In this document: positions 44,457-58,561 of the stretch, in pieces
Numbering within the stretch: position 1 is the first letter of the stretch
How the letters are laid out: each line of letters begins with the position of its first letter
Assembly (NCBI GenBank): GCA_011364965.1
Contig: RDOB01000003.1
Coordinates: 192,001-256,000 of the forward strand
Source of the DNA: Candidatus Heimdallarchaeota archaeon
GTDB lineage: Archaea > Asgardarchaeota > Heimdallarchaeia > Hodarchaeales > Hodarchaeaceae
Reading direction: 5' to 3'
Length of the DNA stretch: 64,000 nt
Program-made: the position numbers and the translations under genes
The notes under the pieces: model-generated
Databases searched by the model: none
What the model was told of the DNA's origin: nothing
What the model saw: the letters and a program-made list of their open reading frames with translations, nothing else

Positions 44457-44970
44457 TTACTTCCTAAATACTTTTTTGATTTCTTTTAGAGGTACATCAA
44501 ACACTTCATTATGGGGGGGGAGGGGTTCAGAATAAAAAAACTCTGGCAATCTATCATGAGCTTTGGTAAATCCTACTCTTTTATTAAACTCAAGTTTCTT
44601 CTTTAATATCTTCATTCCATAAGATACTGGATCTAATTCTTCTAGTTCTAACATCGCTTTCCCATTGTCAATCATTCCTTCCATTGCAGATGGTATATCT
44701 AGGAGTGCATATACAGTAAAGAAGCAATATCCTATAGAATCAAGAAAAGCAGTAAAGGCCTGATACTGGGAGCATTTGTATCGTAATAAAACCAGGAGCA
44801 GCAATAAATTTATTATTAGGTCCCAAAGGTTCACACAAAAGGATCTACTTCATCTACAATTATTGTAGATGTTAATCCTCTTCCCCCTAAGTGTATATAT
44901 TCTTCGGGTAATTCTTCCCAATTTACAGTTAGTTTTGTCATATTTACCCTTACGATCTGATTCAAGTCAT
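44457..44970 (-). pseudogene. Aldehyde:ferredoxin oxidoreductase remnant with large internal deletion and frameshifts
   Basis: N-terminus (QIVRVNMTKL...LGGRGL...EVDP/CEPLGPNNK) joined directly to C-terminus (DSIGYCFF...DRLPEFFYSEPLPPHN). Confidence 0.85.
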
Positions 44971-45073: not shown

Positions 45074-45751
45074 TCAAGGTTCAATTATTAATTCTTCTAA
45101 TTTTGTGATTACTTGTACATAAATCTCGTCGATATCAGGAAAATCAAATTTCGCGTTTTCTCTTTTAATTAGGATAAACGGAATATAACTCCGCAATGAC
45201 GCGTATAAATCTGATGGAGAATCACCGATATAAATAACGTCGTCTTTAGATAAATTTAACTTCTTCAAAGTGATTTCCAACCCACTAGGGTGCGGTTTCG
45301 GCTCAATCATCTCTTCTAATCCAGTTAAACATTCAAAATAGTCAGTCAAATTAAATGTTGCCAATATTTTTGAGGCTACATATGATTTGTTATTAGTTAC
45401 GACAGCTAACCTAAATCCATATTTTTTTAATAAGATCAGTACCCTATGAACGTTTGGGAAAAGGGATACATTTAAAGTAATTTTATCAACAAAATAATTA
45501 TCTATTAGTTTTGTTAACCGATCTTTTTCCCTAGCATTGAATTCTAAGGAAGGGAATAAGCAAAGTAATTGACCTTCAGTTGAGAATGCAACGATTTTTT
45601 CAATAATAGATGGAGCGGGGATTTCATATTTTTCCCTTCTAAGAATCTCTTGGAGTGCAATTATCCACCCTTTTGTACTATCTACGAAAACTCCATCCAA
45701 GTCGAAAATAATTGCTTTCAGTGATTTTCTATGCTGCAAAGGACCTTTCAT
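45074..45751 (-). CDS. HAD-superfamily phosphatase
   Basis: FDLDGVFVDS, VTN, KPHP, IGDSPSD. Confidence 0.92.
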   Translation of the reverse strand: MKGPLQHRKSLKAIIFDLDGVFVDSTKGWIIALQEILRREKYEIPAPSIIEKIVAFSTEGQLLCLFPSLEFNAREKDRLTKLIDNYFVDKITLNVSLFPNVHRVLILLKKYGFRLAVVTNNKSYVASKILATFNLTDYFECLTGLEEMIEPKPHPSGLEITLKKLNLSKDDVIYIGDSPSDLYASLRSYIPFILIKRENAKFDFPDIDEIYVQVITKLEELIIEP

Positions 45752-45782
45752 TGGAAATCAAGAATAGGAATGATAATAGGAA

Positions 45783-46601
45783 TTAACGAACTTGCTGTAC
45801 TGCTTCCATGAATTCCCTAACACGTTTAATATCGACGTTTTTCCAAGTATCACCATTGAATTTCAAGCTCGTACCGACAATAACTCCATCTGCTACCTCG
45901 AGCTGTTTTATAATATTATCTTTTCTCGCGCCTGTGTTCACAATTACTGCCGCGCCTAATGAATTTGCTTTTACGGTTTTTAGCTCATCAAGTTTAGCTT
46001 CCATGCCAGTCATGGGTCCTGAAACACAAAGTGCATCGGCAATACCAACAAATACCGCTCCTTTGGCAATCAATGCTAATGAGCGTTGATCCAAAGGATG
46101 AGCGAATTCTGCATTCACAATACCAAAGATTTTGATATCATTTGCTCCGATAGCCTTCCTATATCGTAACGTTTCAGCACCTGGAGCGTTCAAGAACCCC
46201 ATATCCCCTGCAAATGCCCCAGTAAATACTCCCCTTACAAATTTTGCTCCAGTGGCTTTAGCTACTGCTAATGCTGAAATAGGATCCCACATTATGTCAA
46301 TACCGTATGGGATTGATATTTCAGATTTTAATTCCCCAATTACTGCAGCCATGGATGCAACAACTACTTGGTTTACTCCAGTTGCATAAGGACGATCCCC
46401 TTCATTGCAGAAGAGAAGGCCGTCAATCCCTCCTTCTTGCAAAGCTAATAAGTCTTGTTTGGCACTGGAAAATATTTTTCCCATTCCTTCTTCTTCGTTG
46501 AACTCAGGTGTATAGGGAAGAGGAGGAAAATGAACCATCCCAATCACAGGTTTTTTTACATTAAAAATTTCATCTAAACATGTCATTTCTAAACCCTTCA
46601 T
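45783..46601 (-). CDS. BtpA/SgcQ-family TIM-barrel protein
   Basis: KPVIGMVHFPPLP, NEGDRPY, ADALCVSG, DGVIVGTSLK. Confidence 0.92.
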   Translation of the reverse strand: MKGLEMTCLDEIFNVKKPVIGMVHFPPLPYTPEFNEEEGMGKIFSSAKQDLLALQEGGIDGLLFCNEGDRPYATGVNQVVVASMAAVIGELKSEISIPYGIDIMWDPISALAVAKATGAKFVRGVFTGAFAGDMGFLNAPGAETLRYRKAIGANDIKIFGIVNAEFAHPLDQRSLALIAKGAVFVGIADALCVSGPMTGMEAKLDELKTVKANSLGAAVIVNTGARKDNIIKQLEVADGVIVGTSLKFNGDTWKNVDIKRVREFMEAVQQVR

Positions 46602-46852
46602 ATCATAATACTATTTTCTATCTTAATTTAAATGATGTTAGATTTCTCATAACTTTAAAGAAAAAAAATAAAATATTCTCCAACAGAAATAACGCAAAGT
46701 TCCAAACATTTAGAACTCTCTGTTCTTTTTCAAAGGAGAGGTTTTTTATAGAATAAAAACTGCTATACTCATATAAATTCAGATCTGAAGTCTTTTAAGA
46801 AATCAAAAATCAAATTCATCACCTAGAAGTATGAAATACCCAGGGAATTATA

Positions 46853-47278
46853 ATGCAAGAAACTGAATTTAAAACTAAATATATATCTGTTAAAACTCTT
46901 AATGCAGGGGAATATTACGATGTAACTGATGAACTTAGCACATTCGTAAAGGAAAGTGGCATACAGAAAGGTATACTTATAGCTTATAGTTTGCATACTA
47001 CAACTGGATTGGTTGTAAATGAAGGTTCTGATCCTGGGGTAGGAAAAGATGTTTCTCAAGTTTTATGGGAACTTATACCTGAAACAAGACAATGGAATCA
47101 CACAGAAGAAAGCCCTCTGGATTCAGCTGCGCATGTGAAAGCTCAAATGATAGGAAATTCAATAATTCTAGGAATTGATCAGTCAAGGTTAATACTTGGA
47201 ACTTGGCAAAGAGTATATTTCATCGAATATATTGAAGCCAGAGAGAGAAAAGTCTTTGTAATAATCTTTGGAAAATGA
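46853..47278 (+). CDS. YjbQ/UPF0047-family protein
   Basis: HTTTGLVVNE, AAHVKA, LGTWQRVYFIE. Confidence 0.92.
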   Translation: MQETEFKTKYISVKTLNAGEYYDVTDELSTFVKESGIQKGILIAYSLHTTTGLVVNEGSDPGVGKDVSQVLWELIPETRQWNHTEESPLDSAAHVKAQMIGNSIILGIDQSRLILGTWQRVYFIEYIEARERKVFVIIFGK

Positions 47279-47493
47279 GAAAAGAGAGTTTCTCTCCAAA
47301 AATATTTGATACGAACAATATCAGAATAACCTCTAACAAACTTTACCCATATTTGATATCTAAGTTTTAATAAATAGCTGAATATTCTACTTCTTATTGT
47401 TAAATCTGGGAAAATCATGTCAGAATACGTGCGCTTGTGAATTAACTAATCAATTTTCCTAAATATATTTGAAAAAAAAGAAGGAAAAACCAA

Positions 47494-47940
47494 ATGGACA
47501 TTTTTGTACTGAAATCTAAAGCTAAGAATAAGCGTGAAATAGTACATGAATTATTTTCATTACTCTTTGAAAGTGGATATGTAAAGGAAACCTATGAAGA
47601 GGCAATTCATAAGCGCGAACTTGAATTTCCAACAGCTTTAGAGCTTCAGGGATCATTTAACGTTGCAATTCCGCATGCAGAGACGGAATACGTTAACAAA
47701 CCAGCTATCGCATTTGGAATCCTAGAGAATTCGATAGAATGGGAAAGCATGGAAGACCCCGATGTATTAATCCCCGTACATCTAGTGTTTTTGCTAGCAA
47801 TTAAAGTTCCTGAACTTGTTGTACCCAATCTTAAGGCTTTGTCAGATAAGATTTTCAGTAAACCAGATATTGTTGCTGAATTAAGGAATTCAAACGATTT
47901 TGACCGAACAAGAAAAACTCTTGTAGGTTTATTAACTTAA
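47494..47940 (+). CDS. PTS enzyme IIA (Fru/Mtl/Gat type)
   Basis: RELEFPTAL, VAIPHA phospho-His. Confidence 0.92.
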   Translation: MDIFVLKSKAKNKREIVHELFSLLFESGYVKETYEEAIHKRELEFPTALELQGSFNVAIPHAETEYVNKPAIAFGILENSIEWESMEDPDVLIPVHLVFLLAIKVPELVVPNLKALSDKIFSKPDIVAELRNSNDFDRTRKTLVGLLT

Positions 47941-47974
47941 AAACCATCAAAGAAAAAAGATTGGAGTCATAATC

Positions 47975-48247
47975 ATGCCTAAGGTTCAATTCACTGCGAT
48001 TTTAAAAAACCGAGTAGGGTTACACGCGCGACCTGCCGCGCTTTTCGTTAGAACCTCCAAAAAGTATCAATGTGAAATTTTTGTAGAAAAAGAGGGCAAC
48101 AGGGTTGACGCAAAAAAAATCCTGGGGGTTCTAGGGCTAGGAGCAAATAAAGACGACAAAATAACAGTCTATCTCGATGGACAAGATGCATTAGATGCCA
48201 AAGAAGTTCTACTCGAGATGATCGAAAACAAATTTGGCGAAGAATGA
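47975..48247 (+). CDS. ptsH: Phosphocarrier protein HPr
   Basis: GLHARPAA (His17). Confidence 0.95.
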   Translation: MPKVQFTAILKNRVGLHARPAALFVRTSKKYQCEIFVEKEGNRVDAKKILGVLGLGANKDDKITVYLDGQDALDAKEVLLEMIENKFGEE

Positions 48248-49992
48248 GTTGTAAGAGAATGAAAATAGTAGTTGGTATTCCTGCTTCTGAAGGGATAGCG
48301 ATAGGTAAAGCACTTGTATATGAGCGGGAATCCAATAATGAAATCGATACTTTACAACTTAGCTCTTTAACTCCAAATGATGCAATAAAACGATTTCAGG
48401 AAGCAATATCTATTTCAATCAGTCGGTTAGGAAAATTAGCTCGAAAAACTGAAGTTGAAATTGGTCCAAATGAAGCTGCAATATTTGATGCACAAATTCT
48501 AATATGTGAAGATGATGATTTTCAGCAAAGTGTGATTAAAAAAATCAATCAAGGAATTCCGATTGACAAAGCAATATGGATTGTTGTCGATTTCTATATT
48601 TCAAAATTCGCGGAGATGGACAACGATTATTTTAAAGAACGTGCACTTGATATTCAAGATGTAGGAAATCAAATCATAAAAGCACTAACAGGTAGTAACC
48701 CCAACGCGTTAATGGAATTAACGGAAAAGAAAATCATTGTATCACGAGTTTTGACACCATCTGATACAGTAGAATTGCCAAAAAAATATGTTTTAGGATT
48801 TCTAACAGAATTTGGAGGACCTACCTCTCATGTTGCAATTATTGCACGAGCTCTTAATGTACCCGCTGTTATCGGTATCCCAGAGCTTACACACCAGATT
48901 TCTCAAGGAGATTTATTAATCATAGATGGAACAAATGGTCACGTAATAATTAATCCTGATACTAAAACCCTTGGAAAATATGCAGTTCAACAAAAAAAGA
49001 TGGTTCAAAACCAGCAGGAGCTTCAAAAATTTGCTAAAATTCAAGCCAAAACTCAAGATGGAAAATTAATAAAGATTCAAGCGAATATTGGTTCAGTAGA
49101 TGAGGTATATCGTGCAATGGATCATGGTGCTGATGGTATAGGGCTATTAAGAACGGAATTTCTGTATCTAGAAAAAAAAGACTTACCGACGGAAAACGAA
49201 TTATTTGATACCTTTAAAGAAATATTAAGCGCGATGCGTGAGAAAGCAGTAATCCTTCGAACCCTTGATATCGGGGGAGATAAAGATATCCCTAGTTTAG
49301 TTTTGCCAAAGGAAGAAAATCCTTTTCTAGGATTACGGGGAAGTAGGTTTATTTCAGATGCTCAGTTGAGACGAATAATAATAACTCAAGTGAGAGCTGC
49401 ATTAAGAGCGTCATCATTTGGAAATTTAAAGATCATGTTTCCAATGGTTAGTACTCTGAAGGAAGTTTTAGATTTAAATACTCTCGTGAATGAATGTCGA
49501 TCAGATTTACTTGCTAATGGATATAACATTGCCACGTCTGTAGAAATAGGGATAATGGTTGAAGTTCCTTCCATTGCATTATGCGCAGAAGCAGTAGCGC
49601 CATATGTAGACTTCTTCAGTATAGGTACAAATGATCTTACTCAATATGTCCTTGCTGCTGATCGTACCAATGAAACCATTGCATACCTTTACGATCATTT
49701 TCATCCATCTGTTTTTCGGTTAATCCAAATTGTAGTTAATGCTGCTCACAAATATGGAAAATGGGTTGGAATATGTGGAGAATTGGCAAGTGAATCATTA
49801 GCTACTCCAATATTATTGGGTTTAGGTATTGATGAACTTTCTATGAATATTAATTCGATTCCGAAAATAAAAAGGCAAGTCACACGTCAATCTATGAATA
49901 AATCCAAAGAAATTTTGAAAACAGTATTAGATTTACCAACTTCAAAAGATGTGAGGAAATTTTTATCACAAAACTCTATTAATGACATATAA
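48244..49992 (+). CDS. ptsI: PEP-protein phosphotransferase (PTS enzyme I)
   Basis: TSHVAIIAR, GLLRTEFL, RTLDIGGDK, SIGTNDLTQY, GICGE; ATGA overlap with ptsH. Confidence 0.97.
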   Translation: MSCKRMKIVVGIPASEGIAIGKALVYERESNNEIDTLQLSSLTPNDAIKRFQEAISISISRLGKLARKTEVEIGPNEAAIFDAQILICEDDDFQQSVIKKINQGIPIDKAIWIVVDFYISKFAEMDNDYFKERALDIQDVGNQIIKALTGSNPNALMELTEKKIIVSRVLTPSDTVELPKKYVLGFLTEFGGPTSHVAIIARALNVPAVIGIPELTHQISQGDLLIIDGTNGHVIINPDTKTLGKYAVQQKKMVQNQQELQKFAKIQAKTQDGKLIKIQANIGSVDEVYRAMDHGADGIGLLRTEFLYLEKKDLPTENELFDTFKEILSAMREKAVILRTLDIGGDKDIPSLVLPKEENPFLGLRGSRFISDAQLRRIIITQVRAALRASSFGNLKIMFPMVSTLKEVLDLNTLVNECRSDLLANGYNIATSVEIGIMVEVPSIALCAEAVAPYVDFFSIGTNDLTQYVLAADRTNETIAYLYDHFHPSVFRLIQIVVNAAHKYGKWVGICGELASESLATPILLGLGIDELSMNINSIPKIKRQVTRQSMNKSKEILKTVLDLPTSKDVRKFLSQNSINDI

Positions 49993-50004
49993 TATTCTCA
50001 GTTT

Positions 50005-51075
50005 TTATACAGCTTCTCTTTCTTTTTTCCTCTCAAGGGCAGCTTTCTCTTTATAGTAAGTTCTCCAAGAAAGAGCCTCAAGTTCTTCCGCGACTTGGGA
50101 TGTCTCCCATAATTTTTCGAATTTGTCTAAAGCCCGCGCTCTTTCATTTTTTCCTGTTAATTTAACTAAATTGACTGGACTGGAAAGATCGATTTCTTCT
50201 AATATGTGATCTGTAACCCAAACATCATTATCATCCAAAATAATAAAAGTTTGTTTGATTAATCCTGCTTCTGCTTTTCTAACTAAGATATCAACCCCGA
50301 TACGCCTCCAATCTGCACATCTTTTTAAATAACTCTTAAAATCACCTGCTATTTGACTTGCAATAATTTTAATGGCTGGTTTGCCTCCCTGAAAACCTCT
50401 CAAACCATCATAAAAGCCTAGTCGCCCTATAGAGGTCATAATGGATACTTTCGTGGCAGGAGTCATCAATGTATGAGGAGTTGAATACATTAATTGATAA
50501 CCAGAACTTCTCCTTCCCATTAGACGTAAACCTCGGTAGTCATCATGGATTAGTTGAAATGGATACTCTTTTGGATTAAATTCGCCATTAAGTGCTAAAG
50601 GTAATAATTGTTGAATCAAATCGTCAGCTACATCCTTAAAATTCTTTAATTGCCCTTTATTCTCGTCAATATATTCATGATTCATGTTGCGATGAAAATA
50701 CATTATCGAGCCAGCAATTATAATGAAAATTAATATTGGAAAGATGAAGAATGGATTTGCTAGCAATTCATCAGCCCAATCAAACATATTCCAGAATGAA
50801 GAAAGAAGGATAAAAACAAAGAAAATGAAGACTGCAATTGCTAAAGACTGAGTTGGAGAGATGATTCTATCTAGAAGGGGAAAATGACCGGGTGGATTAA
50901 GGTTATCGACTGTTTTTAAGGTTTGTTTGACCTCAATTGGAAAATAATTTTCTCCACTGGTAGCTAACGCATTTATTTCCTTCTCTGTAGGAAAATGTTT
51001 CCGCCATTTATCTAATAAATAGATGAATTTAATAATATCTTCGTGTGATTTTGATTCAAATGTCATAATTGGCAC
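50005..51075 (-). CDS. Hypothetical 2-TM membrane protein with possible PLD-like C-terminal fold
   Basis: Two TM segments; FIILDDNDVWV...FEKLWETS; no HKD motif. Confidence 0.55.
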   Translation of the reverse strand: MPIMTFESKSHEDIIKFIYLLDKWRKHFPTEKEINALATSGENYFPIEVKQTLKTVDNLNPPGHFPLLDRIISPTQSLAIAVFIFFVFILLSSFWNMFDWADELLANPFFIFPILIFIIIAGSIMYFHRNMNHEYIDENKGQLKNFKDVADDLIQQLLPLALNGEFNPKEYPFQLIHDDYRGLRLMGRRSSGYQLMYSTPHTLMTPATKVSIMTSIGRLGFYDGLRGFQGGKPAIKIIASQIAGDFKSYLKRCADWRRIGVDILVRKAEAGLIKQTFIILDDNDVWVTDHILEEIDLSSPVNLVKLTGKNERARALDKFEKLWETSQVAEELEALSWRTYYKEKAALERKKEREAV

Positions 51076-51125
51076 ATCAAGGACTTTAATAAGAGAAGAA
51101 TTCTATCCAAGGTCAAAGGCCTGTC

Positions 51126-52202
51126 TTAGCTATTAGGATGGATTATTGTACGTATACTTTTTAATTCAGCGATTTCTTGAAATCCAACTTCCAGTTCTTC
51201 TAAAGGTCGAACCTTTGTTATAAGTTTACTCACATCGATCCGTTTATTTGCAATCAGGTGTCCAGCTTTGTAATAATCGCTAAGAGACCCATAACCAAAG
51301 GATCCTGTGAGTATAATTTCTTTATAATGTAAATCTCGCGGATCTATTTCTATTTTTACTCCCTTAGGAAAGCCTGCAAAGGAAATAAACCTCCCATGAG
51401 GAGCTAACATTTTTATCCCTTGCTCAGCTGCTTTTGCATTGCCAGTAGTATCAAAGACAACATCTACTCCGTCTTCAGTGATATCAAAAATGAACTTAAG
51501 TGGATCAGATTCTTGAACATTGAGGACATCAGAAGCTCCAAGCTTTTTTGCTATTTCAAGACGTTCATCTATCATCCCAGTAACTGTTATCCTATTAACC
51601 CCATAAACGTTGGCAAGTTGGATATGCAGTAATCCAATTCTCCCTTCACCTAAAATCACAATATTATCCGTAATTTTCACTTTTCCCTGCTCAAAACTTC
51701 GTATTACACATGCAAAGGGTTCAATGAAGGTTGCTTCATCATAACCTATTGATTCCTCTAATGGTATTAAATTCCAAGTCGGGACTCTAACAAATTGAGC
51801 AAAAGCACCATTGATCGGTTCGATTTCCTCCGTACCGTAACCAATGACAGATAATTGTGTACATAAATTAAATTTCGACTGCACACAATATTTGCATTGA
51901 AAACAAGGCATATCAGGGTTAGCACTAACTCTATCGCCTATTTTGTACCCCTTAACTTTTTCACCTAGGGAAACAATTGACCCAGAAAATTCATGTCCAA
52001 GAATGATGGGAAAAGAACAAGAAGACACTCCAGTATATTTCTTAACATCAGTAGCACAAATTCCAACAGATTCTACTTTAATTAATACTTCATTATAAGA
52101 AGGACGAGGTGTATCCACTCTTTCAATTCTTACATCTTTAGGTCCATAAATTAGACCTGCTTTCATTTGATCAGGGATCATCCAAATCACATTCAGACTC
52201 AT
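51126..52202 (-). CDS. Zn-dependent polyol(-phosphate) dehydrogenase (MDR family)
   Basis: GICATD, GHE, CFQCKYC..NLC, Rossmann GEGRIG. Confidence 0.92.
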   Translation of the reverse strand: MSLNVIWMIPDQMKAGLIYGPKDVRIERVDTPRPSYNEVLIKVESVGICATDVKKYTGVSSCSFPIILGHEFSGSIVSLGEKVKGYKIGDRVSANPDMPCFQCKYCVQSKFNLCTQLSVIGYGTEEIEPINGAFAQFVRVPTWNLIPLEESIGYDEATFIEPFACVIRSFEQGKVKITDNIVILGEGRIGLLHIQLANVYGVNRITVTGMIDERLEIAKKLGASDVLNVQESDPLKFIFDITEDGVDVVFDTTGNAKAAEQGIKMLAPHGRFISFAGFPKGVKIEIDPRDLHYKEIILTGSFGYGSLSDYYKAGHLIANKRIDVSKLITKVRPLEELEVGFQEIAELKSIRTIIHPNS

Positions 52203-52825
52203 TTAGAATTCTCGAGGACTTTCATCCATAAAATTGTTCTTGCTGTAGTTTCTAATGATTCCAGAGCATAGAAAGTTTTCATAAGACTCTTTCCTGCGAC
52301 TAGAACACCATGTTTTTCAAGCAAGCAGGCTATTGCGGGTTGATTCGGAGGAGGGTACAAACCTTTCTCAACTGATTTAAGGGTTTTTGCGGCAATCTCT
52401 GCTAAATCCTGAGTTCCAGGAACGCGATAAGGAGCGACTGGCACAAATCCGACTTCTTCTTCAGCAAAGGTTGTAGCTGCTTCGATTGCCATTCCCATGG
52501 TTGCAAAAACCATTGTATTAGGTGAATGCGCATGAATAACTGCATTAACGTCTTTTATGTCCCTATAAACTGTCAAATGCATTGGTGTTTCACTTGATGG
52601 ACGATTTCCACGGGGTCCTTCAATAATCTCGCCCTTTTTGTTGATAATAATGAAATCTTTTCCCCGAATGTCACCAAAACAATAATCTGCAGGTTTTATT
52701 AAAAAAGTATCATTATCAAGTTTTACGCTAATATTTCCACCTGTACTATAGGTGAGTCCTTTTTCATAAATCTGTCGACAAACTCTAGCCATGTCCTGTT
52801 TAAGAGTTAATTGCTTTTTTGTCAT
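52199..52825 (-). CDS. Class II aldolase/epimerase (FucA/AraD family)
   Basis: GGNISV, PSSETPMH, HAHS, HGV; start moved to ATG 52825. Confidence 0.9.
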   Translation of the reverse strand: MTKKQLTLKQDMARVCRQIYEKGLTYSTGGNISVKLDNDTFLIKPADYCFGDIRGKDFIIINKKGEIIEGPRGNRPSSETPMHLTVYRDIKDVNAVIHAHSPNTMVFATMGMAIEAATTFAEEEVGFVPVAPYRVPGTQDLAEIAAKTLKSVEKGLYPPPNQPAIACLLEKHGVLVAGKSLMKTFYALESLETTARTILWMKVLENSK

Positions 52826-53012
52826 GGAAATACCACCTATGGGGATTCTTTTGAATATATTGATTATCCGAAAAGATTCAGTGTAATAATATGAAAGTAA
52901 TCTAACAGAAGTAACAGAACTAATCCTCAATTACCTAATATTTATCCAGTTTGATCAAAGAATAGATTAAACAAGCTATAAATCAATTTTATAAGGAAAT
53001 ACTGAGTTAAAC

Positions 53013-53339
53013 TCATTCTCCCTGTAGAACATTCAATATATCTTGTTCTAATTGCTCTTTATTCATACCAGAAAGAAATGGAATCGCATTAAGAATCGGA
53101 ACGCCATTGATTGTCCTTTTTCCATCCTCTGTTGTTTCCCCAGAGACCTTGGTGCTAGATACTATAAGATCATATTTTTGAAAATTGGTTTTGGACTTTA
53201 CCTCAAACGATTTACATTGATTTACATCAGCTGGGATTTTGTTCGCTTTACATAATTCTTTAACTTTTGTTGCGACAACAGTAGCAGTTGCGATTGCAGT
53301 TCCACAAGCGACCAATATTTTCTTAACCATATAGATCAT
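53013..53339 (-). CDS. PTS enzyme IIB, galactitol family
   Basis: ILVACGTAIATAT phospho-Cys loop. Confidence 0.92.
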   Translation of the reverse strand: MIYMVKKILVACGTAIATATVVATKVKELCKANKIPADVNQCKSFEVKSKTNFQKYDLIVSSTKVSGETTEDGKRTINGVPILNAIPFLSGMNKEQLEQDILNVLQGE

Positions 53340-53514
53340 TCCTCTTTATCGACTCTTTCATTCACGCATTCTTTGGAATAAATTAGTCCTTTTAATAACT
53401 ATCAATGAAATATTCTGATCCAGTTTAGACAAATATATTATTTTACTATAAAAAATATCCGTAACAAAAATTTGAATAGTTCTGCAGACTTCTCTAAACT
53501 TGGCTAGAAGAATT

Positions 53515-53549
53515 AAAAAAAAAGAGGGGAGGGGGAGCGTTTTTACGCT
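53515..53549 (-). terminator. Hairpin plus pyrimidine/U tract after the IIC gene
   Basis: Minus strand: AGCGT-AAAA-ACGCT, CCCCCTCCCCTC, then T9. Confidence 0.6.
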
Positions 53550-53560
53550 TGGATCAATTT

Positions 53561-55138
53561 TCAGGTGTGGATCTTTTCCTCAGAAATTCGTGTAGGTTCG
53601 TCTTTAAGCTTGAGCCAAAGAAGGATGTAACCAATCCACCATAAAATATCTATGGCAAACCAAACGATATACCCACTTGAAGTAAAGACGTCAGTCCAAG
53701 CAGACATCTGGAAGAGTGGGAATATAAGAAGAATCAGCATCCAATGAACACTGTTGCTACCCGCATCTAACGAAGTGATTGTTAAACCAGTTTCGCCAAA
53801 GTAGAAACCAGTTAGGTCGAAACCAGCAATTCCTCCGGCTGCGGTCATCAATGGGGCCATGATACCTGCAGTATACAAAATAACTATCAATTGTATAGTG
53901 CCTGAAATGACTCCACGAACGATATTTCCTTTGGATGGCATGACAGCAAGAACCGAGTAGAAAACCATACCAGCTAAATCGGCATAGGGCAAAACTATGA
54001 TTCCGAATGGTGCTGGAAGCAGACTAAAGATGACAGCCAACAAAATCGATATTGGAATCATAAGAAGAGCAACAGCAATAACAGCTGGATACCCAACAAT
54101 GATGGCCATATCCATTCCAATAATAAACTCACGGCCAGGATATTTTTGAGTGATATAGTCTCGAATACCCTCGGAGAGAGGAATCAATCCTTCCATCAAA
54201 ACAGCAACCATCTTAGGGATCAAATACATAACAGCTGCGGAAGTCATTGCTACATTAGCAATTATGACTAAGGTATCCCAGAAAGTTGCGAAATCCAATA
54301 ATCCGGGAAAATAACCTAAAAACCCAATGAGACCTCCAATGACAAGTCCAATGAAGATAGGTTCACCAATGAGACCCAATCTCTCTTGAACTGTTTCTGG
54401 ATCAGCTTTTACGTCTCCAAGTCCAGGAATCTTTTTGATAACTTTATCAATTCCAAAGGCGTATGGAGCCATCATAGCATTCCCGTGTGGTAACGAAATT
54501 CCTGGAAGATTAAAGTTCTCAGGATCAGCCATACATGGAGCAATCCAATCTGAGATTTTATATGCCATTATACAATGTATAATCGCAAAAACCATTGCCA
54601 AGAAGTAAGCCATTAGCTCACCCATGTGAGGTTGGACTACCACATATGTTAAGGCTGCTGTAAAACCAAAAGCCCAGTAGTTCCACAAGTCTACATCTAG
54701 AGTCTTGGTACCTAAGGGAATTGCTTTTCCAGCAATATTTAGAGTTCTATTCCCTAGTGCTAACATGATAAGGTTCACAAGGAAACATACGATGATAACT
54801 CCAAAAGCTGTCGGCATAGCCCACGTAATACTGCTCGCTAAACCCCAACCAGCATCAATAGCTGTTAAGGTAACACCTGTTTGTTCCACGAACGCTGCAG
54901 TGGCTGGACCAATCGCACCCATGAAAACATCAAATGCGAAAGTGAAAATCCCAATGAAACCAATTCCAATAAGAATTCCACTACGGAGTGACTTTGAAAA
55001 TCCCTGTCTAAAGATAAGACCAAGGATTAAGATAATAATTGGCATGAAAATAACTGGACCAGCAGCAAAAAGGAAATTGATCGGGCCACTAATCAGATTG
55101 TTCAGAGCATCAAACAATTCTGCTTGCATTACTACCAA
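53561..55138 (-). CDS. PTS enzyme IIC, galactitol (GatC/SgcC) family
   Basis: IGIGFIGI, IDAGW, TKTLDVDLWNYW, EGLIPLSE, IGMD, LPYADL. Confidence 0.93.
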   Translation of the reverse strand: MVVMQAELFDALNNLISGPINFLFAAGPVIFMPIIILILGLIFRQGFSKSLRSGILIGIGFIGIFTFAFDVFMGAIGPATAAFVEQTGVTLTAIDAGWGLASSITWAMPTAFGVIIVCFLVNLIMLALGNRTLNIAGKAIPLGTKTLDVDLWNYWAFGFTAALTYVVVQPHMGELMAYFLAMVFAIIHCIMAYKISDWIAPCMADPENFNLPGISLPHGNAMMAPYAFGIDKVIKKIPGLGDVKADPETVQERLGLIGEPIFIGLVIGGLIGFLGYFPGLLDFATFWDTLVIIANVAMTSAAVMYLIPKMVAVLMEGLIPLSEGIRDYITQKYPGREFIIGMDMAIIVGYPAVIAVALLMIPISILLAVIFSLLPAPFGIIVLPYADLAGMVFYSVLAVMPSKGNIVRGVISGTIQLIVILYTAGIMAPLMTAAGGIAGFDLTGFYFGETGLTITSLDAGSNSVHWMLILLIFPLFQMSAWTDVFTSSGYIVWFAIDILWWIGYILLWLKLKDEPTRISEEKIHT

Positions 55139-55419
55139 ATTAATTCACCGTAAACGGTTTTTTTGTGCGTTATTAGAATTTGAGAAAAATTCATCCTCAA
55201 ATTGCAGATCAATGATTGATGAACCGATCTTATATAAATCTATCTATATCAAAATGCTTTTAGAAGCGTTAGAACTGTCTAATACCCTCTTCACTCACAT
55301 AGAAAATAACGATTTATACACAGAAGATTTTAATTACTATGTATTGATAATTATGAAGTAAGCTAACTAAAATTATAGCTTACACTAGAAATTTCCAGCC
55401 TTTTTAAGTTTCACTCTGA

Positions 55420-56088
55420 TTATCCAAAACCACCTTCTCGCATTATTTGAATAGACGAACTTGAAGCAATCCGTGATGCCCCAGCTTTAATCATAGCAAC
55501 TGCATCTTCAAAATGTCGAATCCCTCCTGCAGCTTTTACTTTTATTCTATCACCTACTGTTTGATGAAGCAACATTATGTCATGGACTGTTGCTCCAGCA
55601 GGAGCATATCCTGTACTAGTTTTAACGAAAGCTGCTCCAGCATCAGCAACAGCTATTGCTGCTTTCCTCTTCATTTCATCAGTTAAGTAAGCAGTTTCTA
55701 TAATGACTTTCACTCCAACATTTTGTGAAACTTTGATTACCGCTTCAATGTCTTTCTGAACGACATCCCACTTACTTTCCTTAATAGCGCCAAGATTTGC
55801 AACCATATCAATTTCCGTTGCCCCATTAGTTATACATTTCTCTGCCTCCCATGCTTTCCACTCTGAAGAAATAGCACCAAAGGGAAAAGCAATACAGGGG
55901 TTAACATGAATTTCGGTTCCTTTTAACAACGATGTTGCAAGCTTTATGTGGACAGGATTCACTGAAAGCGCTGCAAAATTCCATTCTTTCGCCTCACCGG
56001 CCATTCGAATTACATCTGATTCCCCAAAAAAAGGTTTAAGGGCTGAATGATCCATATATTTAGCAAATTCTTTTTTTGTAAATTTCAT
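55420..56088 (-). CDS. deoC: Deoxyribose-phosphate aldolase
   Basis: MDHSAL, EIDMV, KVIIET, FVKTSTG, KAAGGIR. Confidence 0.93.
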   Translation of the reverse strand: MKFTKKEFAKYMDHSALKPFFGESDVIRMAGEAKEWNFAALSVNPVHIKLATSLLKGTEIHVNPCIAFPFGAISSEWKAWEAEKCITNGATEIDMVANLGAIKESKWDVVQKDIEAVIKVSQNVGVKVIIETAYLTDEMKRKAAIAVADAGAAFVKTSTGYAPAGATVHDIMLLHQTVGDRIKVKAAGGIRHFEDAVAMIKAGASRIASSSSIQIMREGGFG

Positions 56089-56102
56089 TTATCCTCATCT
56101 AT

Positions 56103-57341
56103 TTAATTAATTTTATACCATTTGAGAACCTTTTCAACAGCATGGATTATAGAATCTAAATCGTTCCGATTTAAACTAGGACTACAACCAGTTAACCAAA
56201 TAGCACGATCTGAATAATTAGCTGCTTCAGGACACATTTTGCTATAATCTACAAGACTTAATCCTGTATAGTAATGACAATCCCATGGACACTTCGTGGT
56301 TCCATAAATCTGATGATTCTGATAGAATGGCTGTAAATTATCTGGCAAAACTGGTGCATCACATAAAATACCTTCAGATCGAATGGCCTTCACGATTTCA
56401 TCTCGCGAAGCGCAGAATTGTTTCAATTCCAGTAAAAGGGTGTATTTCCACCACACTCCTTTGCCATAATTAGGTTCTTTTGGAATTTGAAGTCCATCTA
56501 TTTCTAAAGATTCCAACTGTTTCGAAAGAAAAGCAGCATTTTCACGCCGTATAGAAATATTATTTTCAATTCGTTTTACTTGTCCTACTCCCAACGCTCC
56601 CATTAGTTCTGTCATTCTATAATTATATCCTAATCCATCAAAATAATCTCCTTTACCAGGAACTTTCGCAAAATTACCGTAGTGTTTTGCTTTGTCCGCT
56701 AAGAATTGATCATCAGAAACAAGAAATCCTCCTTCGCCTGTGGTAATGATTTTATTCCAAACTGTTGAGAAACTACCAAAAATACCAAGAGTACCAACCT
56801 TGCAATTTTTATAAGATGCCCCCAAGGCCTCAGCGGCATCCTCGACAATTGGAATGTTATATTGCTCCCCAATTTCGAGAATAGGATCCAAATCAGCGGG
56901 AAGTCCCCATGTATGAACAACAGATATTGCTTTAGTTCGGGAAGTTATTTTTTTCCGAACATCTTCTGGATTAATGAACCCAAACTCAGGATCAACATCA
57001 GCATAGATTGGAATGGCATTTTGATATAAACTTGGGGTACCACTAGAGATCCATCCGAGTGGAGAACAGATAACTTCATCTCCAGGACCAATATCCAGCG
57101 CAATTAAGGAAAGATGCATAGTACTCGTTCCATTATTAGCTAATACTATGTATTTACTCCCAAGATAATCCTTAATCATTTCTCCAAACTTATTTGCCCA
57201 TATACCATGAGTTTGGACAAGCTTTCGAGATTTAAGCACTTCCAGGACATTTTTTGATTCTTCTTCTCCTAGATTTACCTCAAATAATGGTAAGGGATCT
57301 TTTCTTACAGGCACTCCTCCATGGAGAGCTAATTTTTCCAA
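56103..57341 (-). CDS. DegT/DnrJ/EryC1/StrS sugar aminotransferase
   Basis: NNGT, EDAAEALG, NKIITTGEGG, GYNYRM. Confidence 0.93.
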   Translation of the reverse strand: MEKLALHGGVPVRKDPLPLFEVNLGEEESKNVLEVLKSRKLVQTHGIWANKFGEMIKDYLGSKYIVLANNGTSTMHLSLIALDIGPGDEVICSPLGWISSGTPSLYQNAIPIYADVDPEFGFINPEDVRKKITSRTKAISVVHTWGLPADLDPILEIGEQYNIPIVEDAAEALGASYKNCKVGTLGIFGSFSTVWNKIITTGEGGFLVSDDQFLADKAKHYGNFAKVPGKGDYFDGLGYNYRMTELMGALGVGQVKRIENNISIRRENAAFLSKQLESLEIDGLQIPKEPNYGKGVWWKYTLLLELKQFCASRDEIVKAIRSEGILCDAPVLPDNLQPFYQNHQIYGTTKCPWDCHYYTGLSLVDYSKMCPEAANYSDRAIWLTGCSPSLNRNDLDSIIHAVEKVLKWYKIN

Positions 57342-57529
57342 TTTTTCATCAAATCCTTAAAATTAAAAATTAAAACTCAAATAACATCAGTCAATATTAG
57401 TAATTATCGTAACAAAATTACTAAACTTTTTGTTTTTGAAGTGATATTATTGTTAATGAGAACCAAAATCAATCTCTGCTCTCATTTTTTCCAAATAAAG
57501 ACAAATTTAAACTTCACCATCAAATGAAA

Positions 57530-58561
57530 CTAAGATAAATCATCTAGATAACTTTTGGAATTATATTCATCAAGTGCTTCGTATCCACGAGCAACTATTT
57601 CTGTTAAATAGCACACTTGGTCTGCCTGTTCTAGTAAGCTTGACAATAGCCTTGCTAGAAACCATGTAGGTTCATCAGAAGACTCTTCAGAAATAATAGC
57701 CAACATAGGTTGAACTTGGTATTTCTTATTCTTCACTTCTTCGTGTGTGGAAAGAGCTTTAGAAATATCTTTGTTGAGGAAAGCTTTAATTGCATCATCA
57801 AGGAGTTCTATGAGTTTATCAGAAATTTCACGAACCATCGATTCAGTTTCAGGGGTAAGAAATGAAGCTTGAAATTTCCCAATTCGCTCTGCTAGTTCAC
57901 GACAGGAGCGACCAAGGACTTCACCTTGATACACAACAATCTGGTAATTTAAACATTCGAAAGGATATAGGTTCAATTCCTCTAAGGGGTCTTCGAGTGA
58001 TTGTTGTAACAGACGAACAGTAAAATAATATACACGGTCTACCTCAGAGTATCTTTTAATGATTCGGTCTTTAATTTCTTCATCTTGAGTAAAAATAGCT
58101 GATATAGCATCATCCAACATAGAAAATGAAAGAGCATAGATTTTTCTAAGAAGAGTTTGAAGATCTAAGACTGATGTAGCTATAAATTGAATTTCTAGTT
58201 GATTAGGGGCCTCACGTATTATTTCAAGACCGATTTGATGCCGAATCTCTTCACGAATTTTATCTGGATCTAAAATTTTTTTCTTTCCTTCTGTAGGAAC
58301 CACAATCATTGTATCAAAACCTGTAACATAGCGTGCAAGAATCTCTAGCTCTATTTTTTCATTTTCAGAAATAGTTGTACTTTTTCTAGGTTGAATCCTA
58401 GGATTACGAGGATAGAGTAAAAGGTATGTTTCATTTTCAATTCGAATTCCAATTTCATCTTTAGCTTCCAAGCCATTCCGCTCAATCCATTCACGAGGAA
58501 GACTTACAAGATATGTACGAGCTCCAGTGAGCTGTAAACTACGGGTGATATCTTTTGGCAT
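57530..58561 (-). CDS. AbrB-PhoU archaeal regulator
   Basis: RSLQLTGARTYLVSLPREW, YVTGFD, PhoU repeats. Confidence 0.88.
   Translation of the reverse strand: MPKDITRSLQLTGARTYLVSLPREWIERNGLEAKDEIGIRIENETYLLLYPRNPRIQPRKSTTISENEKIELEILARYVTGFDTMIVVPTEGKKKILDPDKIREEIRHQIGLEIIREAPNQLEIQFIATSVLDLQTLLRKIYALSFSMLDDAISAIFTQDEEIKDRIIKRYSEVDRVYYFTVRLLQQSLEDPLEELNLYPFECLNYQIVVYQGEVLGRSCRELAERIGKFQASFLTPETESMVREISDKLIELLDDAIKAFLNKDISKALSTHEEVKNKKYQVQPMLAIISEESSDEPTWFLARLLSSLLEQADQVCYLTEIVARGYEALDEYNSKSYLDDLS

Follow-up and report, generated by a model that had tools for sequence, protein, structure and literature searches.

A bacterial-type galactitol-family phosphotransferase system in a genomic island of Hodarchaeales, with a putative dehydrogenase-aldolase route for polyol breakdown

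Introduction

Which carbohydrate would an archaeon take up through a bacterial-type sugar phosphotransferase system (PTS), and do all the genes clustered with such a system serve one pathway? These questions are raised by an island in a Candidatus Heimdallarchaeota genome, located in a stretch of 64,000 nucleotides that was analysed as a whole (contig RDOB01000003.1, positions 192,001 to 256,000; the window). A sequence-only reading of the window had proposed a single undescribed pathway, in which an amino- or deoxy-polyol is imported and phosphorylated, then transaminated, oxidised and cleaved by an aldolase.

Results

Gene content and phosphorelay

Profile searches gave strong Pfam and NCBIfam matches for the named genes at the positions in Table 1, and the gene inventory of the sequence-only reading is thereby borne out. 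The gene order AbrB-PhoU, DegT, (DeoC), IIC, IIB, aldolase, Zn-dehydrogenase, 356-residue protein, followed by EI, HPr, IIA, YjbQ and then by BtpA, is kept in at least five species, with 47-83% protein identity between species.

Table 1. Features of the island, with window coordinates.
Feature	Coordinates	Strand	Remarks
Whole island	45074-58561		~13.5 kb; EI, HPr, IIA, IIB, Gat-family IIC and catabolic/regulatory genes
AbrB(SpoVT)-PhoU fusion regulator	57530..58561	-	first gene of the island; PF04014 and PF01895
DegT promoter region	57342..57529	-	conserved element and inverted half-site
DegT/DnrJ/EryC1-family PLP aminotransferase, 412 aa	56103..57341	-	PF01041, 275 bits
DERA (deoxyribose-phosphate aldolase)	55420..56088	-	TIGR00126, 241 bits, cut-off 117
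IIC promoter and leader	55139..55419	-	TATA-like box, hairpin/palindrome, GGTG site
PTS EIIC, Gat family, 525 aa	53561..55138	-	PF03611, 205 bits
PTS EIIB, GatB-like	53013..53339	-	PF02302; GatB model 72 bits
Aldolase-operon promoter region	52826..53012	-	TTCTGTT..ATTACT element
Class II aldolase-fold enzyme, FucA-like	52199..52825	-	PF00596, 162 bits
Zn-dependent medium-chain dehydrogenase, polyol/threonine dehydrogenase type	51126..52202	-	PF08240 and PF00107
Conserved 356-aa membrane protein	50005..51075	-	no Pfam or NCBIfam match
Enzyme I (PEP-protein phosphotransferase)	48244..49992	+	TIGR01417, 609 bits
HPr	47975..48247	+	PF00381; His in GLHARPA
EIIA, Mtl/Fru/Gat type	47494..47940	+	PF00359; His in AIPHAE
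YjbQ/UPF0047 protein	46853..47278	+	PF01894 and TIGR00149; upstream of IIA-HPr-EI, same strand
BtpA/SgcQ-family TIM-barrel protein	45783..46601	-	TIGR00259, 256 bits
HAD-IA phosphatase-like hydrolase	45074..45751	-	PF13419; variable accessory gene

The EI of the island is the only one in the genome; it is full length with all three domains and exceeds the TIGR01417 cut-off of 342 bits. Phospho-acceptor motifs were read from the translations of HPr (GLHARPA), EI (GGPTSHVAIIAR), IIA (AIPHAE) and IIB (VACGTA), with the histidines of the first three and the cysteine of IIB in place, and the IIA histidine and IIB cysteine align with His62 of Escherichia coli GatA and Cys9 of GatB, respectively. The claim that all five components retain their phospho-acceptors consequently stands for these four but not for IIC, which has no such residue. 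HPr carries a lysine at the position of a Ser46-type site and lacks that site. As shown by the retained motifs, the predicted phosphorelay of EI, HPr, IIA and IIB is complete and catalytically intact, with one membrane IIC. The latter has a C-terminal extension of about 60 residues that is missing from bacterial homologues (450-470 residues), scores 314 bits against TIGR00827, under that model's cut-off of 542, and shares 33% identity with SgcC and about 32% with GatC. The best named matches of IIA and IIB are GatA and GatB. All three EII proteins, the aldolase and the Zn-dehydrogenase score under every NCBIfam equivalog cut-off, and sequence names no substrate for them.

Accessory genes and erosion of the island in congeners

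In the congener G063 a clean deletion runs from inside DegT to the spacer between IIA and YjbQ, and DegT through IIA is gone as one block. BtpA, YjbQ and AbrB-PhoU are intact in congeners with a deleted PTS: YjbQ, 67-71% identical among congeners, is kept in G063, three congeners without the PTS have BtpA orthologues, and AbrB-PhoU, 81-83% identical among congeners, still adjoins BtpA in species without the PTS. Erosion of the island in G058, G060, G062 and G063 shows that it is dispensable. Co-inheritance inside one genus may stem from few evolutionary events.

BtpA scored 250 bits in the family search and shares 41% identity with E. coli SgcQ, and its AlphaFold model (pLDDT 93) resembles phosphate-binding (beta/alpha)8 barrels. 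Homologues with about 50% identity occur in DeoR-BtpA-FGGY kinase-SDR operons in Thermotogota, Chloroflexota and a third bacterial metagenome scaffold. On an uncultured contig whose IIC is sister to those of Hodarchaeales in the IIC tree (the sister contig), BtpA lies within an sgc-type PTS module together with YjbQ. The HAD gene was found beside the island in G000 only, plus a partial copy at a contig end in G057, and is missing from the other loci; it does not belong to the conserved gene set. The 356-residue membrane protein is a cluster member missing from the earlier inventory. Its N-terminal domain is helical, two helices cross the membrane, and its C-terminal domain may be PLD-like; Foldseek gave weak matches only, to TrmBL2 and PLD-fold proteins. 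Congeners share 47-62% identity in this protein, and a search among 1.84 billion proteins yielded only four cluster representatives at E<1e-10.

The DegT-DERA branch

DegT has the lysine of the ...NKIITTGEGG motif, and the lysine motifs FVKTSTG and VKAAGG are readable in DERA. A DegT orthologue (at least 69% identity) was found only in the seven IIC-bearing congeners, and its presence matches that of IIC exactly across 22 species. The island DERA is a second copy, 43% identical to the housekeeping copy on contig C16. Linkage of DegT, DeoC and SgcQ to the PTS was found throughout the Hodarchaeales clade, as the sequence-only reading would have it; the island lacks DERA in G069 and G070. Judged by this distribution, DegT and DERA are Hodarchaeales additions co-inherited with the PTS.

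Cross-species alignments revealed an element, T(T/C)TGTT(G/A)-N4-TAATTACTAA, about 63 nt before the DegT start codon and preceded by an inverted half-site AACA(G/A)AA. The same element, TTCTGTT..ATTACT, lies upstream of the aldolase gene, and it was seen at both genes in five species, though it is short and was spotted by eye, and its genome-wide statistics are partly circular. It persists in the deletion remnant of G063. Because the element is shared, DegT-DERA and the aldolase operon may be under common control. A TATA-like box, GATAGATTTATATA, is present in the IIC leader, and after it come a conserved hairpin or palindrome, ATTTGAG..CTCAAAT, and a GGTG site; RNAalifold predicted nine pairs, seven of them with compensatory changes.

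Among solved structures, those closest to DegT are aminotransferases of nucleotide sugars, for example perosamine synthase, and NtdA (4k2b) was matched with 97 bits. Its nearest outside relatives (about 40% identity) are located in sugar-catabolic clusters, next to sugar ABC transporters, SDRs, HpcH aldolases, RpiB and a GntR regulator, which makes a catabolic DegT credible.

Could the PTS, DegT, Zn-dehydrogenase, class II aldolase, DERA, BtpA, YjbQ and HAD then form one linear pathway of import, transamination, oxidation and cleavage, as proposed from the sequence alone? The tight linkage of DegT and DERA to the PTS across the clade, the promoter element in common with the aldolase operon and the catabolic neighbours of the DegT clade elsewhere agree with this, and DegT enzymes specific for sugar phosphates, such as NtdA, do exist. 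However, BtpA, YjbQ and AbrB-PhoU outlast the PTS deletion, the HAD is variable, DERA is dispensable in two species, and the sister contig and the bacterial modules, in which the core alone recurs, are without DegT. A single pathway comprising all genes is therefore unlikely, and that part of the earlier proposal was not upheld. It is just as doubtful that DegT and DERA, perhaps with AbrB-PhoU, BtpA and YjbQ, are unrelated hitch-hikers from glycan or nucleoside metabolism beside a plain polyol PTS-dehydrogenase-aldolase module. That module does occur by itself in bacteria and on the sister contig, the best solved DegT relatives act on nucleotide sugars, and linkage within a single genus can be inherited by descent; yet the perfect match of DegT with IIC over 22 species, the cis-element common to DegT and the aldolase, the extra, island-specific DERA beside the housekeeping one and the loss of the block as a unit in G063 all count against it.

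The dehydrogenase-aldolase core

The metal site of the aldolase is intact (PSSE, HAH and KHG), and its best solved relatives are fuculose-phosphate aldolases. The top NCBIfam score was for 3-oxo-tetronate-4-phosphate decarboxylase (115 bits, cut-off 250), and the L-ribulose-5-phosphate 4-epimerase subfamily model gave 106 bits. The class II aldolase fold also serves epimerases, decarboxylases and dehydratases, which counts against the explanation preferred below. The start codon is probably near 52825 and not at 52930, since the alignment to most orthologues begins only at residue 33-44. The start of the Zn-dehydrogenase gene overlaps the aldolase stop codon; the enzyme is 26% identical to GatD (147 bits, cut-off 550), and among its PDB relatives are sorbitol, xylitol and threonine dehydrogenases.

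IIC-IIB-aldolase-Zn-dehydrogenase is the only unit that recurs beyond Hodarchaeales, in Clostridium sediminicola, an Erysipelotrichaceae MAG, a Spirochaetia MAG and the Enterococcus avium group, and likewise on the sister contig. Searches of the 87%-complete genome gave no match to GatY-type aldolases (PF01116), RPE (PF00834) or transketolase (PF00456). Since these enzymes were not found and the core recurs in bacteria, the likeliest route predicted from the sequences would lead from a polyol phosphate via a ketose 1-phosphate to DHAP and an aldehyde, and not along the E. coli galactitol route.

With E. coli gatYZABCD (TC 4.A.5.1.1) the island shares the EII family, separate IIA, IIB and IIC proteins (identity 37% for IIB, with its active Cys aligned, and 29% for IIA, with its active His aligned) and a Zn-dehydrogenase gene after the transporter genes. 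In contrast, its IIC is distant, its dehydrogenase is not orthologous to GatD, a FucA-like class II aldolase takes the place of the GatY/GatZ tagatose-bisphosphate aldolase, and EI and HPr are encoded in the island itself. The view that the system is not simply one for galactitol thus held up, given the low identity to GatD and the GatY-type aldolase not found. An ordinary galactitol or pentitol PTS, with the aldolase-fold enzyme acting as an AraD/UlaF-like 4-epimerase or in a tagatose-type route to the pentose-phosphate pathway or glycolysis, is very improbable: the GatA and GatB matches, the score with the epimerase model and RPE genes nearby on the sister contig speak for it, but the poor GatD score, the enzymes not found in the 87%-complete genome and the equal distance of IIC from GatC and SgcC speak against it, as does the SSE motif of the aldolase, which we take to be of FucA type in place of the Asp of AraD.

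Host and origin

The contig (C11, 631,821 bp) has a uniform GC content near 35%, and the island lies about mid-contig, at 237-251 kb. Five of the 43 Ras-family GTPase matches of the genome are on this contig, at 88, 153, 266, 386 and 568 kb, and flank the island on both sides; the genome also has two Snf7 genes. MAGs under the names Ca. Hodarchaeum mangrovi, Hodarchaeota and Heimdallarchaeota carry orthologous loci with the same gene order. The contig belongs to Asgard (Hodarchaeales) and is neither bacterial nor chimeric, in keeping with the archaeal origin suggested earlier, and the rarity of the PTS assumed for archaea holds within Asgard, a true EI being present in only 15 of 400 genomes.

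The IIC tree recovers the Hodarchaeales sequences as a single clade (support 100), sister to the IIC of the uncultured contig (support 99), and this pair is nested among sequences from Bacillota, Myxococcota and Spirochaetota. The surrounding bacterial IICs are mostly from Bacillota, with about 40% identity, and a second Asgard family (f24) is on a separate branch. The tree shows a single origin of the sampled Hodarchaeales IICs nested among bacterial ones, which fits one old acquisition. A bacterial binning or assembly artefact, or a decaying non-functional relic, is scarcely credible: the close outgroup homologues, all bacterial, and the ongoing loss of the island in several congeners speak for it, but the 632-kb contig is uniform in GC and has Asgard signature genes to either side of the island, the island was assembled independently in at least six MAGs from different studies, and the ORFs are all intact with catalytic residues, which at 50-83% interspecies identity points to purifying selection.

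Discussion

The best overall explanation, which we hold with slightly better than even confidence, is an acquired Gat-family PTS with a Zn-dehydrogenase-aldolase core, a DegT-DERA branch and archaeal regulators. A bacterial-type galactitol-family (Gat, TC 4.A.5) PTS would have been acquired horizontally and domesticated in the Asgard genus around Ca. Hodarchaeum. The gene content strongly suggests that a polyol-like carbohydrate is imported and phosphorylated by IIC and IIB, that the Zn-dehydrogenase oxidises the resulting polyol phosphate, giving a ketose 1-phosphate, and that the FucA-like aldolase cleaves this to DHAP and an aldehyde. Such a two-enzyme route would be independent of pentose-phosphate enzymes, of which those sought in the genome were not found. 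Less certainly, DegT and the second DERA may form a Hodarchaeales-specific branch under common control, probably acting on a by-product or variant (aminated, 2-deoxy or both) of the same substrate class to yield carbonyl intermediates, which would go on to glyceraldehyde-3-phosphate and acetaldehyde; an amino- or deoxy-polyol would be a plausible candidate substrate. With similar reservation, AbrB-PhoU and the lineage-specific membrane protein may be archaeal regulators or sensors that replace bacterial DeoR/PRD-type control. BtpA and YjbQ could be remnants of sgc-type PTS modules or partners of them, acting on a phosphorylated sugar without strict dependence on the Hodarchaeales PTS.

In the orphan E. 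coli sgcXBCQAE-sgcR cluster, too, a BtpA/SgcQ gene accompanies a Gat-family EII, and the sister contig unites both module types, plus YjbQ. Unlike sgc, the island has no SgcE (RPE), SgcX (M42 peptidase) or DeoR regulator, and its BtpA gene is divergently transcribed and outlives the PTS. Gat-family polyol or pentitol modules of Bacillota (C. sediminicola, E. avium group, Pelosinus) share the core IIC-IIB-(aldolase)-Zn-dehydrogenase, with a DeoC-like gene in some Pelosinus loci, but protein identity to the island is 27-42%, and DegT, BtpA, YjbQ and AbrB-PhoU were not found within 10 kb. The Bacillus subtilis NtdA/NtdB/NtdC kanosamine pathway combines a DegT-family aminotransferase, a dehydrogenase and a HAD phosphatase acting on phosphorylated, not nucleotide-activated, sugars; being biosynthetic, distantly related and without PTS or aldolases, it may serve as a lead only. 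Haloarchaeal systems (the Haloferax volcanii fructose PTS, DhaKLM) are, like the island, bacterial-type EI/HPr relays in an archaeon after horizontal transfer. Their EII is of the Fru and not the Gat type, 1-phosphofructokinase and class II FBP aldolase act downstream, and the host phylum is another. For the H. volcanii PTS see Pickl et al. 2012, as cited in PMC7997004.

The Hodarchaeales island combines a bacterial-type PTS with unusual breakdown enzymes and archaeal regulators. It would thus be a rare, testable case of complete bacterial-type sugar PTS uptake in the closest archaeal relatives of eukaryotes.

Gene content and phosphorelay of the island

All genes named in an earlier sequence-only reading were recovered by ORF calling and profile searches. 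YjbQ, IIA, HPr and EI, encoded on the plus strand, converge on the minus-strand gene row that runs from AbrB-PhoU to a 356-residue membrane protein. The components by which a phosphotransferase system (PTS) is generally recognised, namely EI, HPr, IIA, IIB and a membrane IIC, are all predicted to be encoded, and this is the single PTS of the genome. The PEP-utilisers_N, mobile and C-terminal domains were all found in EI, whose catalytic histidine is readable in a GGPTSH motif. The phospho-acceptor motifs of EI, HPr (containing His15), IIA and IIB are unbroken in the translations, and the IIA histidine aligns with GatA His62 and the IIB cysteine with GatB Cys9. The claim that all PTS components retain their phospho-acceptors thus holds for these four proteins but not for IIC, which has none.

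Genes of the PTS island, with window positions and supporting matches
Feature	Position	Strand	Evidence or remark
AbrB-PhoU	57530-58561	-	ORF calling and profile match
DegT	56103-57341	-	PF01041, 275 bits
DERA (DeoC)	55420-56088	-	TIGR00126, 241 bits (cut-off 117)
IIC	53561-55138	-	PF03611, 205 bits (cut-off 24)
IIB	53013-53339	-	profile match; VACGTA
Class II aldolase-fold enzyme	52199 to ~52825	-	profile match
Zn-dehydrogenase	51126-52202	-	profile match
Conserved 356-residue membrane protein	50005-51075	-	not listed in the sequence-only reading
EI	48244-49992	+	TIGR01417, 609 bits (cut-off 342)
HPr	47975-48247	+	profile match; GLHARPA
IIA	47494-47940	+	profile match; AIPHAE
YjbQ	46853-47278	+	profile match
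BtpA	45783-46601	-	TIGR00259, 256 bits; diverges from YjbQ
HAD	45074-45751	-	diverges from YjbQ, as BtpA does

A 125-residue ORF (window 44457-44834, minus strand) partially matches aldehyde:ferredoxin oxidoreductase C-terminal domains (PF01314 positions 262-348). A stretch 68% identical to it also adjoins the island in genome G069, there as part of a 586-residue ORF whose best match in the window's own genome lies on another contig (C16, 37% identity), so that the 125-residue ORF looks like a gene fragment.

Host assignment

The window occupies 192-256 kb of a 631,821-bp contig with a GC content of 34.6%, as in the remainder of the 2.97-Mb MAG, and the GC content of the island is unremarkable. 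Ras-family GTPase matches number 43 in the genome, five of them on the island's contig, where they flank the island on both sides; among 14 control genomes only Methanosarcina acetivorans gave a match. Two Snf7/ESCRT-III genes are present in the genome, and public orthologous loci were found in Ca. Hodarchaeum mangrovi, Ca. Hodarchaeota, and Ca. Heimdallarchaeota B3_Heim and TM2S.58. A search of the MAG for archaeal 16S rRNA found none. The uniform GC content, the Ras-family GTPases, the Snf7 genes and the named Hodarchaeales loci together reject a bacterial or chimeric contig and confirm the Asgard taxonomy that had been supposed.

Distribution and origin of the permease

Among 400 Asgard genomes searched, IIC was found in seven of the 22 species of the window's genus (77-83% identity) and, at ~38% identity, in two genomes of an unrelated family. 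A true EI, defined as a match above the curated cut-off, is present in 15 of the 400: members of the window's genus, members of another Asgard family (f24), and three further families with one genome each. Of these three lone genomes, one has an EI-HPr-DhaM-DhaL-DhaK-MIP system and another a different EIIC-GAT-family system. The PTS is thus rare in Asgard archaea, in line with the rarity noted for archaea at large, and the different systems in other families indicate several gains. In a published survey of transporters, which covered strain MK-D1 and four phylum-level MAG sets as five Asgard proteomes, PTS proteins were absent (PMC7997004). Literature searches turned up no publication on a PTS from Heimdall- or Hodarchaeales archaea, and the island proteins had already been named by NCBI's automatic annotation.

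Two further Asgard lineages carry their own EI and HPr with EIIC-GAT-family permeases (loci L171, G007:C15:82000-100000, and L019-L021, genomes G285 and G286); neither system is related to that of the Hodarchaeales clade, suggesting that they were acquired separately. Within the same GTDB class as the window, an EI-HPr-DhaM(EIIA-Man)-DhaL-DhaK cluster adjoins a MIP channel (L170, G055:C1:220000-238000). No sugar EIIC was found near this cluster, which is predicted to be a PTS-dependent dihydroxyacetone kinase system.

The best IIC match outside Hodarchaeales (50% identity) lies on an uncultured 77.7-kb contig, here called the sister contig; the remaining outside matches, at no more than 42% identity, are all bacterial, mainly from Bacillota, followed by Myxococcota and Spirochaetota. 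A quick maximum-likelihood search, in which deep nodes are weak, placed nine Hodarchaeales IICs in one clade (support 100) with the IIC of the sister contig as its sister (support 99), the pair being nested among bacterial Gat-type IICs and the f24 Asgard IICs branching apart from the Hodarchaeales clade. This topology fits one old acquisition of IIC from bacteria, which would have been followed by vertical descent and repeated loss.

A transferable permease, dehydrogenase and putative aldolase core

The core of the island recurs on the sister contig as IIA | IIC-IIB-aldolase-Zn-dehydrogenase. The same contig (ENA ERZ23499022 scaffold_37, 51-78 kb) holds three Gat-family EII sets within ~26 kb: the second belongs to an sgc-type module (IIA-IIC-IIB, ribulose-phosphate 3-epimerase (RPE), M42 peptidase, BtpA, amidohydrolase and YjbQ), and the third Gat-type EII comes with another Zn-dehydrogenase. 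It also bears a cupin-type PGI gene and a stand-alone AsnC/RAM-domain gene, a hint that the contig may be archaeal. Across 74 bacterial loci the IIC-IIB-Zn-dehydrogenase arrangement occurs often. It is joined by a class II aldolase gene in Clostridium sediminicola, in the Enterococcus avium group and in one MAG each from Erysipelotrichaceae and Spirochaetia, and a DeoC-like gene is added in Pelosinus loci; DegT, BtpA and YjbQ occur in none of the 74. The sister contig and the bacterial recurrence together indicate that the transferable unit consists of a Gat-type EII, a polyol-phosphate dehydrogenase and a class II aldolase.

The permease belongs to the EIIC-GAT family (TC 4.A.5) and is equidistant from E. 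coli SgcC (33% identity) and GatC (~32%). A plain galactitol system, which had been raised as an alternative, is disfavoured by several observations. The galactitol-specific NCBIfam cut-offs are missed (TIGR00827, 314 bits against 542; GatB model, 72 against 95; GatA model, 51 against 139), the Zn-dehydrogenase is not a GatD orthologue (26% identity; GatD model, 147 bits against 550), and a GatY-type aldolase (PF01116), as in the E. coli-type GatY/Z tagatose-bisphosphate aldolase, was not found in the 87%-complete genome; nor were ribulose-phosphate 3-epimerase (PF00834) or transketolase. The island resembles E. coli sgcXBCQAER in that BtpA, 41% identical to SgcQ, adjoins a Gat-family EII, but lacks counterparts of SgcE (RPE-like), SgcX (M42) and the DeoR regulator.

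The closest solved relatives of the aldolase-fold enzyme are fuculose-1-phosphate aldolases. Its PSSE, HAH and KHG motifs are present and retain the predicted Glu/His metal site (one glutamate and three histidines in this fold), and its SSE motif is of FucA type; the AraD epimerase has an aspartate at this position. The protein scores below all NCBIfam equivalog cut-offs, with decarboxylase and epimerase models scoring similarly, and for this reason action as an epimerase, decarboxylase or dehydratase stands as an alternative to aldol cleavage. With the enzyme as an aldolase, the simplest working model is that a polyol would be taken up and phosphorylated at C1, the polyol phosphate oxidised at C2 to a ketose 1-phosphate, and this cleaved to DHAP and an aldehyde.

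Conservation and erosion of the island

The full order (AbrB-PhoU, DegT, DeoC, IIC, IIB, aldolase, Zn-dehydrogenase and 356-residue protein, then EI, HPr, IIA and YjbQ, then BtpA) is found in three further genomes (G057, G061 and G073) with 47-83% protein identity. In G069 it is kept from DegT onward; the contig starts just upstream of DegT, leaving AbrB-PhoU unassembled. The island lacks DERA in G069 and G070. The order from AbrB-PhoU through DegT, DeoC, IIC and IIB to the aldolase was also found in a more divergent Hodarchaeales lineage (IIC 65% identity). The HAD gene beside the island is not conserved among species, and a comparison of the flanks across species showed differing gene content without synteny, so that no insertion site or mobility gene can be defined.

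DegT orthologues (at least 69% identity) occur in exactly the seven IIC-bearing species, the best match elsewhere reaching at most 37%. The island DERA is an additional copy, 43% identical to the housekeeping enzyme. The island is also eroding in several congeners. G058 retains AbrB-PhoU through IIB and has no EI; G060 has no PTS, and AbrB-PhoU is followed directly by BtpA (L163, C45, locus 7841-8050); in G062 BtpA alone remains. G063, also without a PTS, retains AbrB-PhoU, the DegT promoter with ~55 DegT codons, the IIA-YjbQ spacer, YjbQ and BtpA (L164, C114:8851-9373), a clean one-block deletion from DegT through IIA. In congeners without the PTS, BtpA, YjbQ and AbrB-PhoU are intact (75-82% identity). 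These patterns indicate that DegT and DERA follow the PTS core, while BtpA, YjbQ and AbrB-PhoU persist without it. The proposed linkage of DegT, DeoC and SgcQ to the PTS is largely borne out in IIC-bearing relatives, most exactly for DegT, which matches the IIC species one for one; BtpA also outlives the PTS in three congeners.

Candidate regulatory elements and the 356-residue protein

The element T(T/C)TGTT(G/A)-N4-TAATTACTAA precedes DegT by ~63 nt and the aldolase gene by 62-112 nt, each in five species; at DegT the inverted half-site AACA(G/A)AA comes before it. Genome-wide the pattern, which was derived from these very sites, is rare, with 13 matches, three of them in the island. This is moderate evidence that DegT and the aldolase operon may form one regulon. 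The motif TTTTGTTACG, which precedes both DegT and IIB in the window, was rejected: with one mismatch it gave eight matches against 5.8 expected, and its occurrence upstream of IIB is not conserved in other species, only the longer element holding in the cross-species alignment. In the IIC leader (window 55139-55228, minus strand), a TATA-like box and a GGTG site flank a conserved hairpin or palindrome, ATTTGAG..loop..CTCAAAT, with counterparts at L076:9911-10000, L079:9911-10000, L080:7599-7688, L081:6944-7033 and L077:1939-2028. Seven of its nine pairs show compensatory changes (RNAalifold), and it may act as an operator or as a regulatory element in the RNA.

The gene for the 356-residue protein invariably closes the aldolase-dehydrogenase operon. 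The protein contains two transmembrane helices as well as an IILDDxxVWV-type motif, yields no Pfam, NCBIfam or PDB sequence match, and is lineage-restricted, with four cluster representatives among 1.84 billion proteins. One distant homologue gives a sub-threshold PLDc_2 match. The structure model is of moderate confidence (pLDDT 67), and Foldseek matches to TrmBL2 and PLD-fold proteins all have E > 0.01; given such weak matches, a TrmB-like sensor is a guess. A 111-residue ORF after the Zn-dehydrogenase on the sister contig was compared with the N-terminal domain of the 356-residue protein and is unrelated.

DegT and DERA

The family domain of DegT and its PLP-binding lysine in an NKIITTGEGG motif predict an aminotransferase rather than a dehydratase. 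Its nearest relatives outside Hodarchaeales (~40% identity) are sited outside polysaccharide loci. In two of three settings an HpcH aldolase gene is a neighbour: on an Anaerolineae-like contig together with a GntR regulator and RpiB, and in Bathyarchaeia together with a sugar ABC transporter and an aldo-keto reductase. An SDR and a class III aminotransferase adjoin the relatives in Bathyarchaeia and on a third contig, where a fucose-isomerase-like gene is also present. A DegT clade of 410-440 residues was seen in carbohydrate-catabolic neighbourhoods (L156, L157/L158 and L159) of Anaerolineae-like bacteria, Bacteroidota-unrelated uncultured contigs and Bathyarchaeia. The catabolic neighbours make a degradative role of DegT credible, and likewise the idea of an amino-sugar or amino-polyol substrate, which stays conjectural because the best solved relatives act on nucleotide sugars. 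The suggested route of import, transamination, oxidation and aldol cleavage of an amino- or deoxy-polyol is partly supported. In the island DERA, both Schiff-base lysine motifs, FVKTSTG and VKAAGG, are readable.

BtpA in PTS and kinase contexts

The structure model of the island BtpA is a confident (beta/alpha)8 barrel, like phosphate-binding barrels in general. A fold search returned only generic barrels (HisF/HisA, TrpA, DHPS, ThiE and KDPG aldolase; TM ~0.6), which are too general to point to a specific chemistry. There is no solved structure among the BtpA homologues, and a literature search on SgcQ, the BtpA family (PF03437) and PDB entries 8GYH, 7B0D and 7B0M found nothing usable. Homologues ~50% identical lie in DeoR-BtpA-FGGY kinase-SDR operons of Athalassotoga (Thermotogota), Thermogemmatispora (Chloroflexota) and a bacterial metagenome scaffold, two of the three adjoining sugar ABC transporters. 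This DeoR/LacI-BtpA-FGGY kinase-SDR operon is conserved in distant phyla (L160, Athalassotoga saccharophila; L161; L162, Thermogemmatispora carboxidivorans) and is a kinase-based counterpart of the PTS-linked context. From the two contexts, BtpA accompanies a phosphorylating step, by PTS or kinase, and a dehydrogenase; this gene company points to action on a phosphorylated sugar or polyol. In three congeners BtpA has outlasted the PTS, which speaks against its depending strictly on the island system.

It is possible, though we consider it rather unlikely as a whole, that the island encodes an undescribed PTS-dependent catabolism of a polyol or sugar that is aminated, deoxygenated or both. A degradative DegT would then act on a phosphorylated non-nucleotide substrate and feed a dedicated DERA and the FucA-like aldolase, and BtpA/SgcQ would be a new TIM-barrel enzyme that converts sugar phosphates both here and in the bacterial kinase-based operons.

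Significance

Hodarchaeales belong to the archaeal group currently placed closest to eukaryotes. The island shows that this group acquired a complete bacterial group-translocation system, which purifying selection has maintained and which has been rewired with predicted archaeal regulators. The type of PTS is known; its host lineage, the regulatory rewiring and the contexts for orphan families are what make it notable here. Testable contexts are provided for three long-standing orphans: BtpA/SgcQ (PTS or FGGY kinase, plus dehydrogenase), YjbQ, and the DegT clade of sugar-catabolic clusters. The island also suggests a polyol-type compound as a carbon source, which could aid the enrichment or cultivation of Hodarchaeales.
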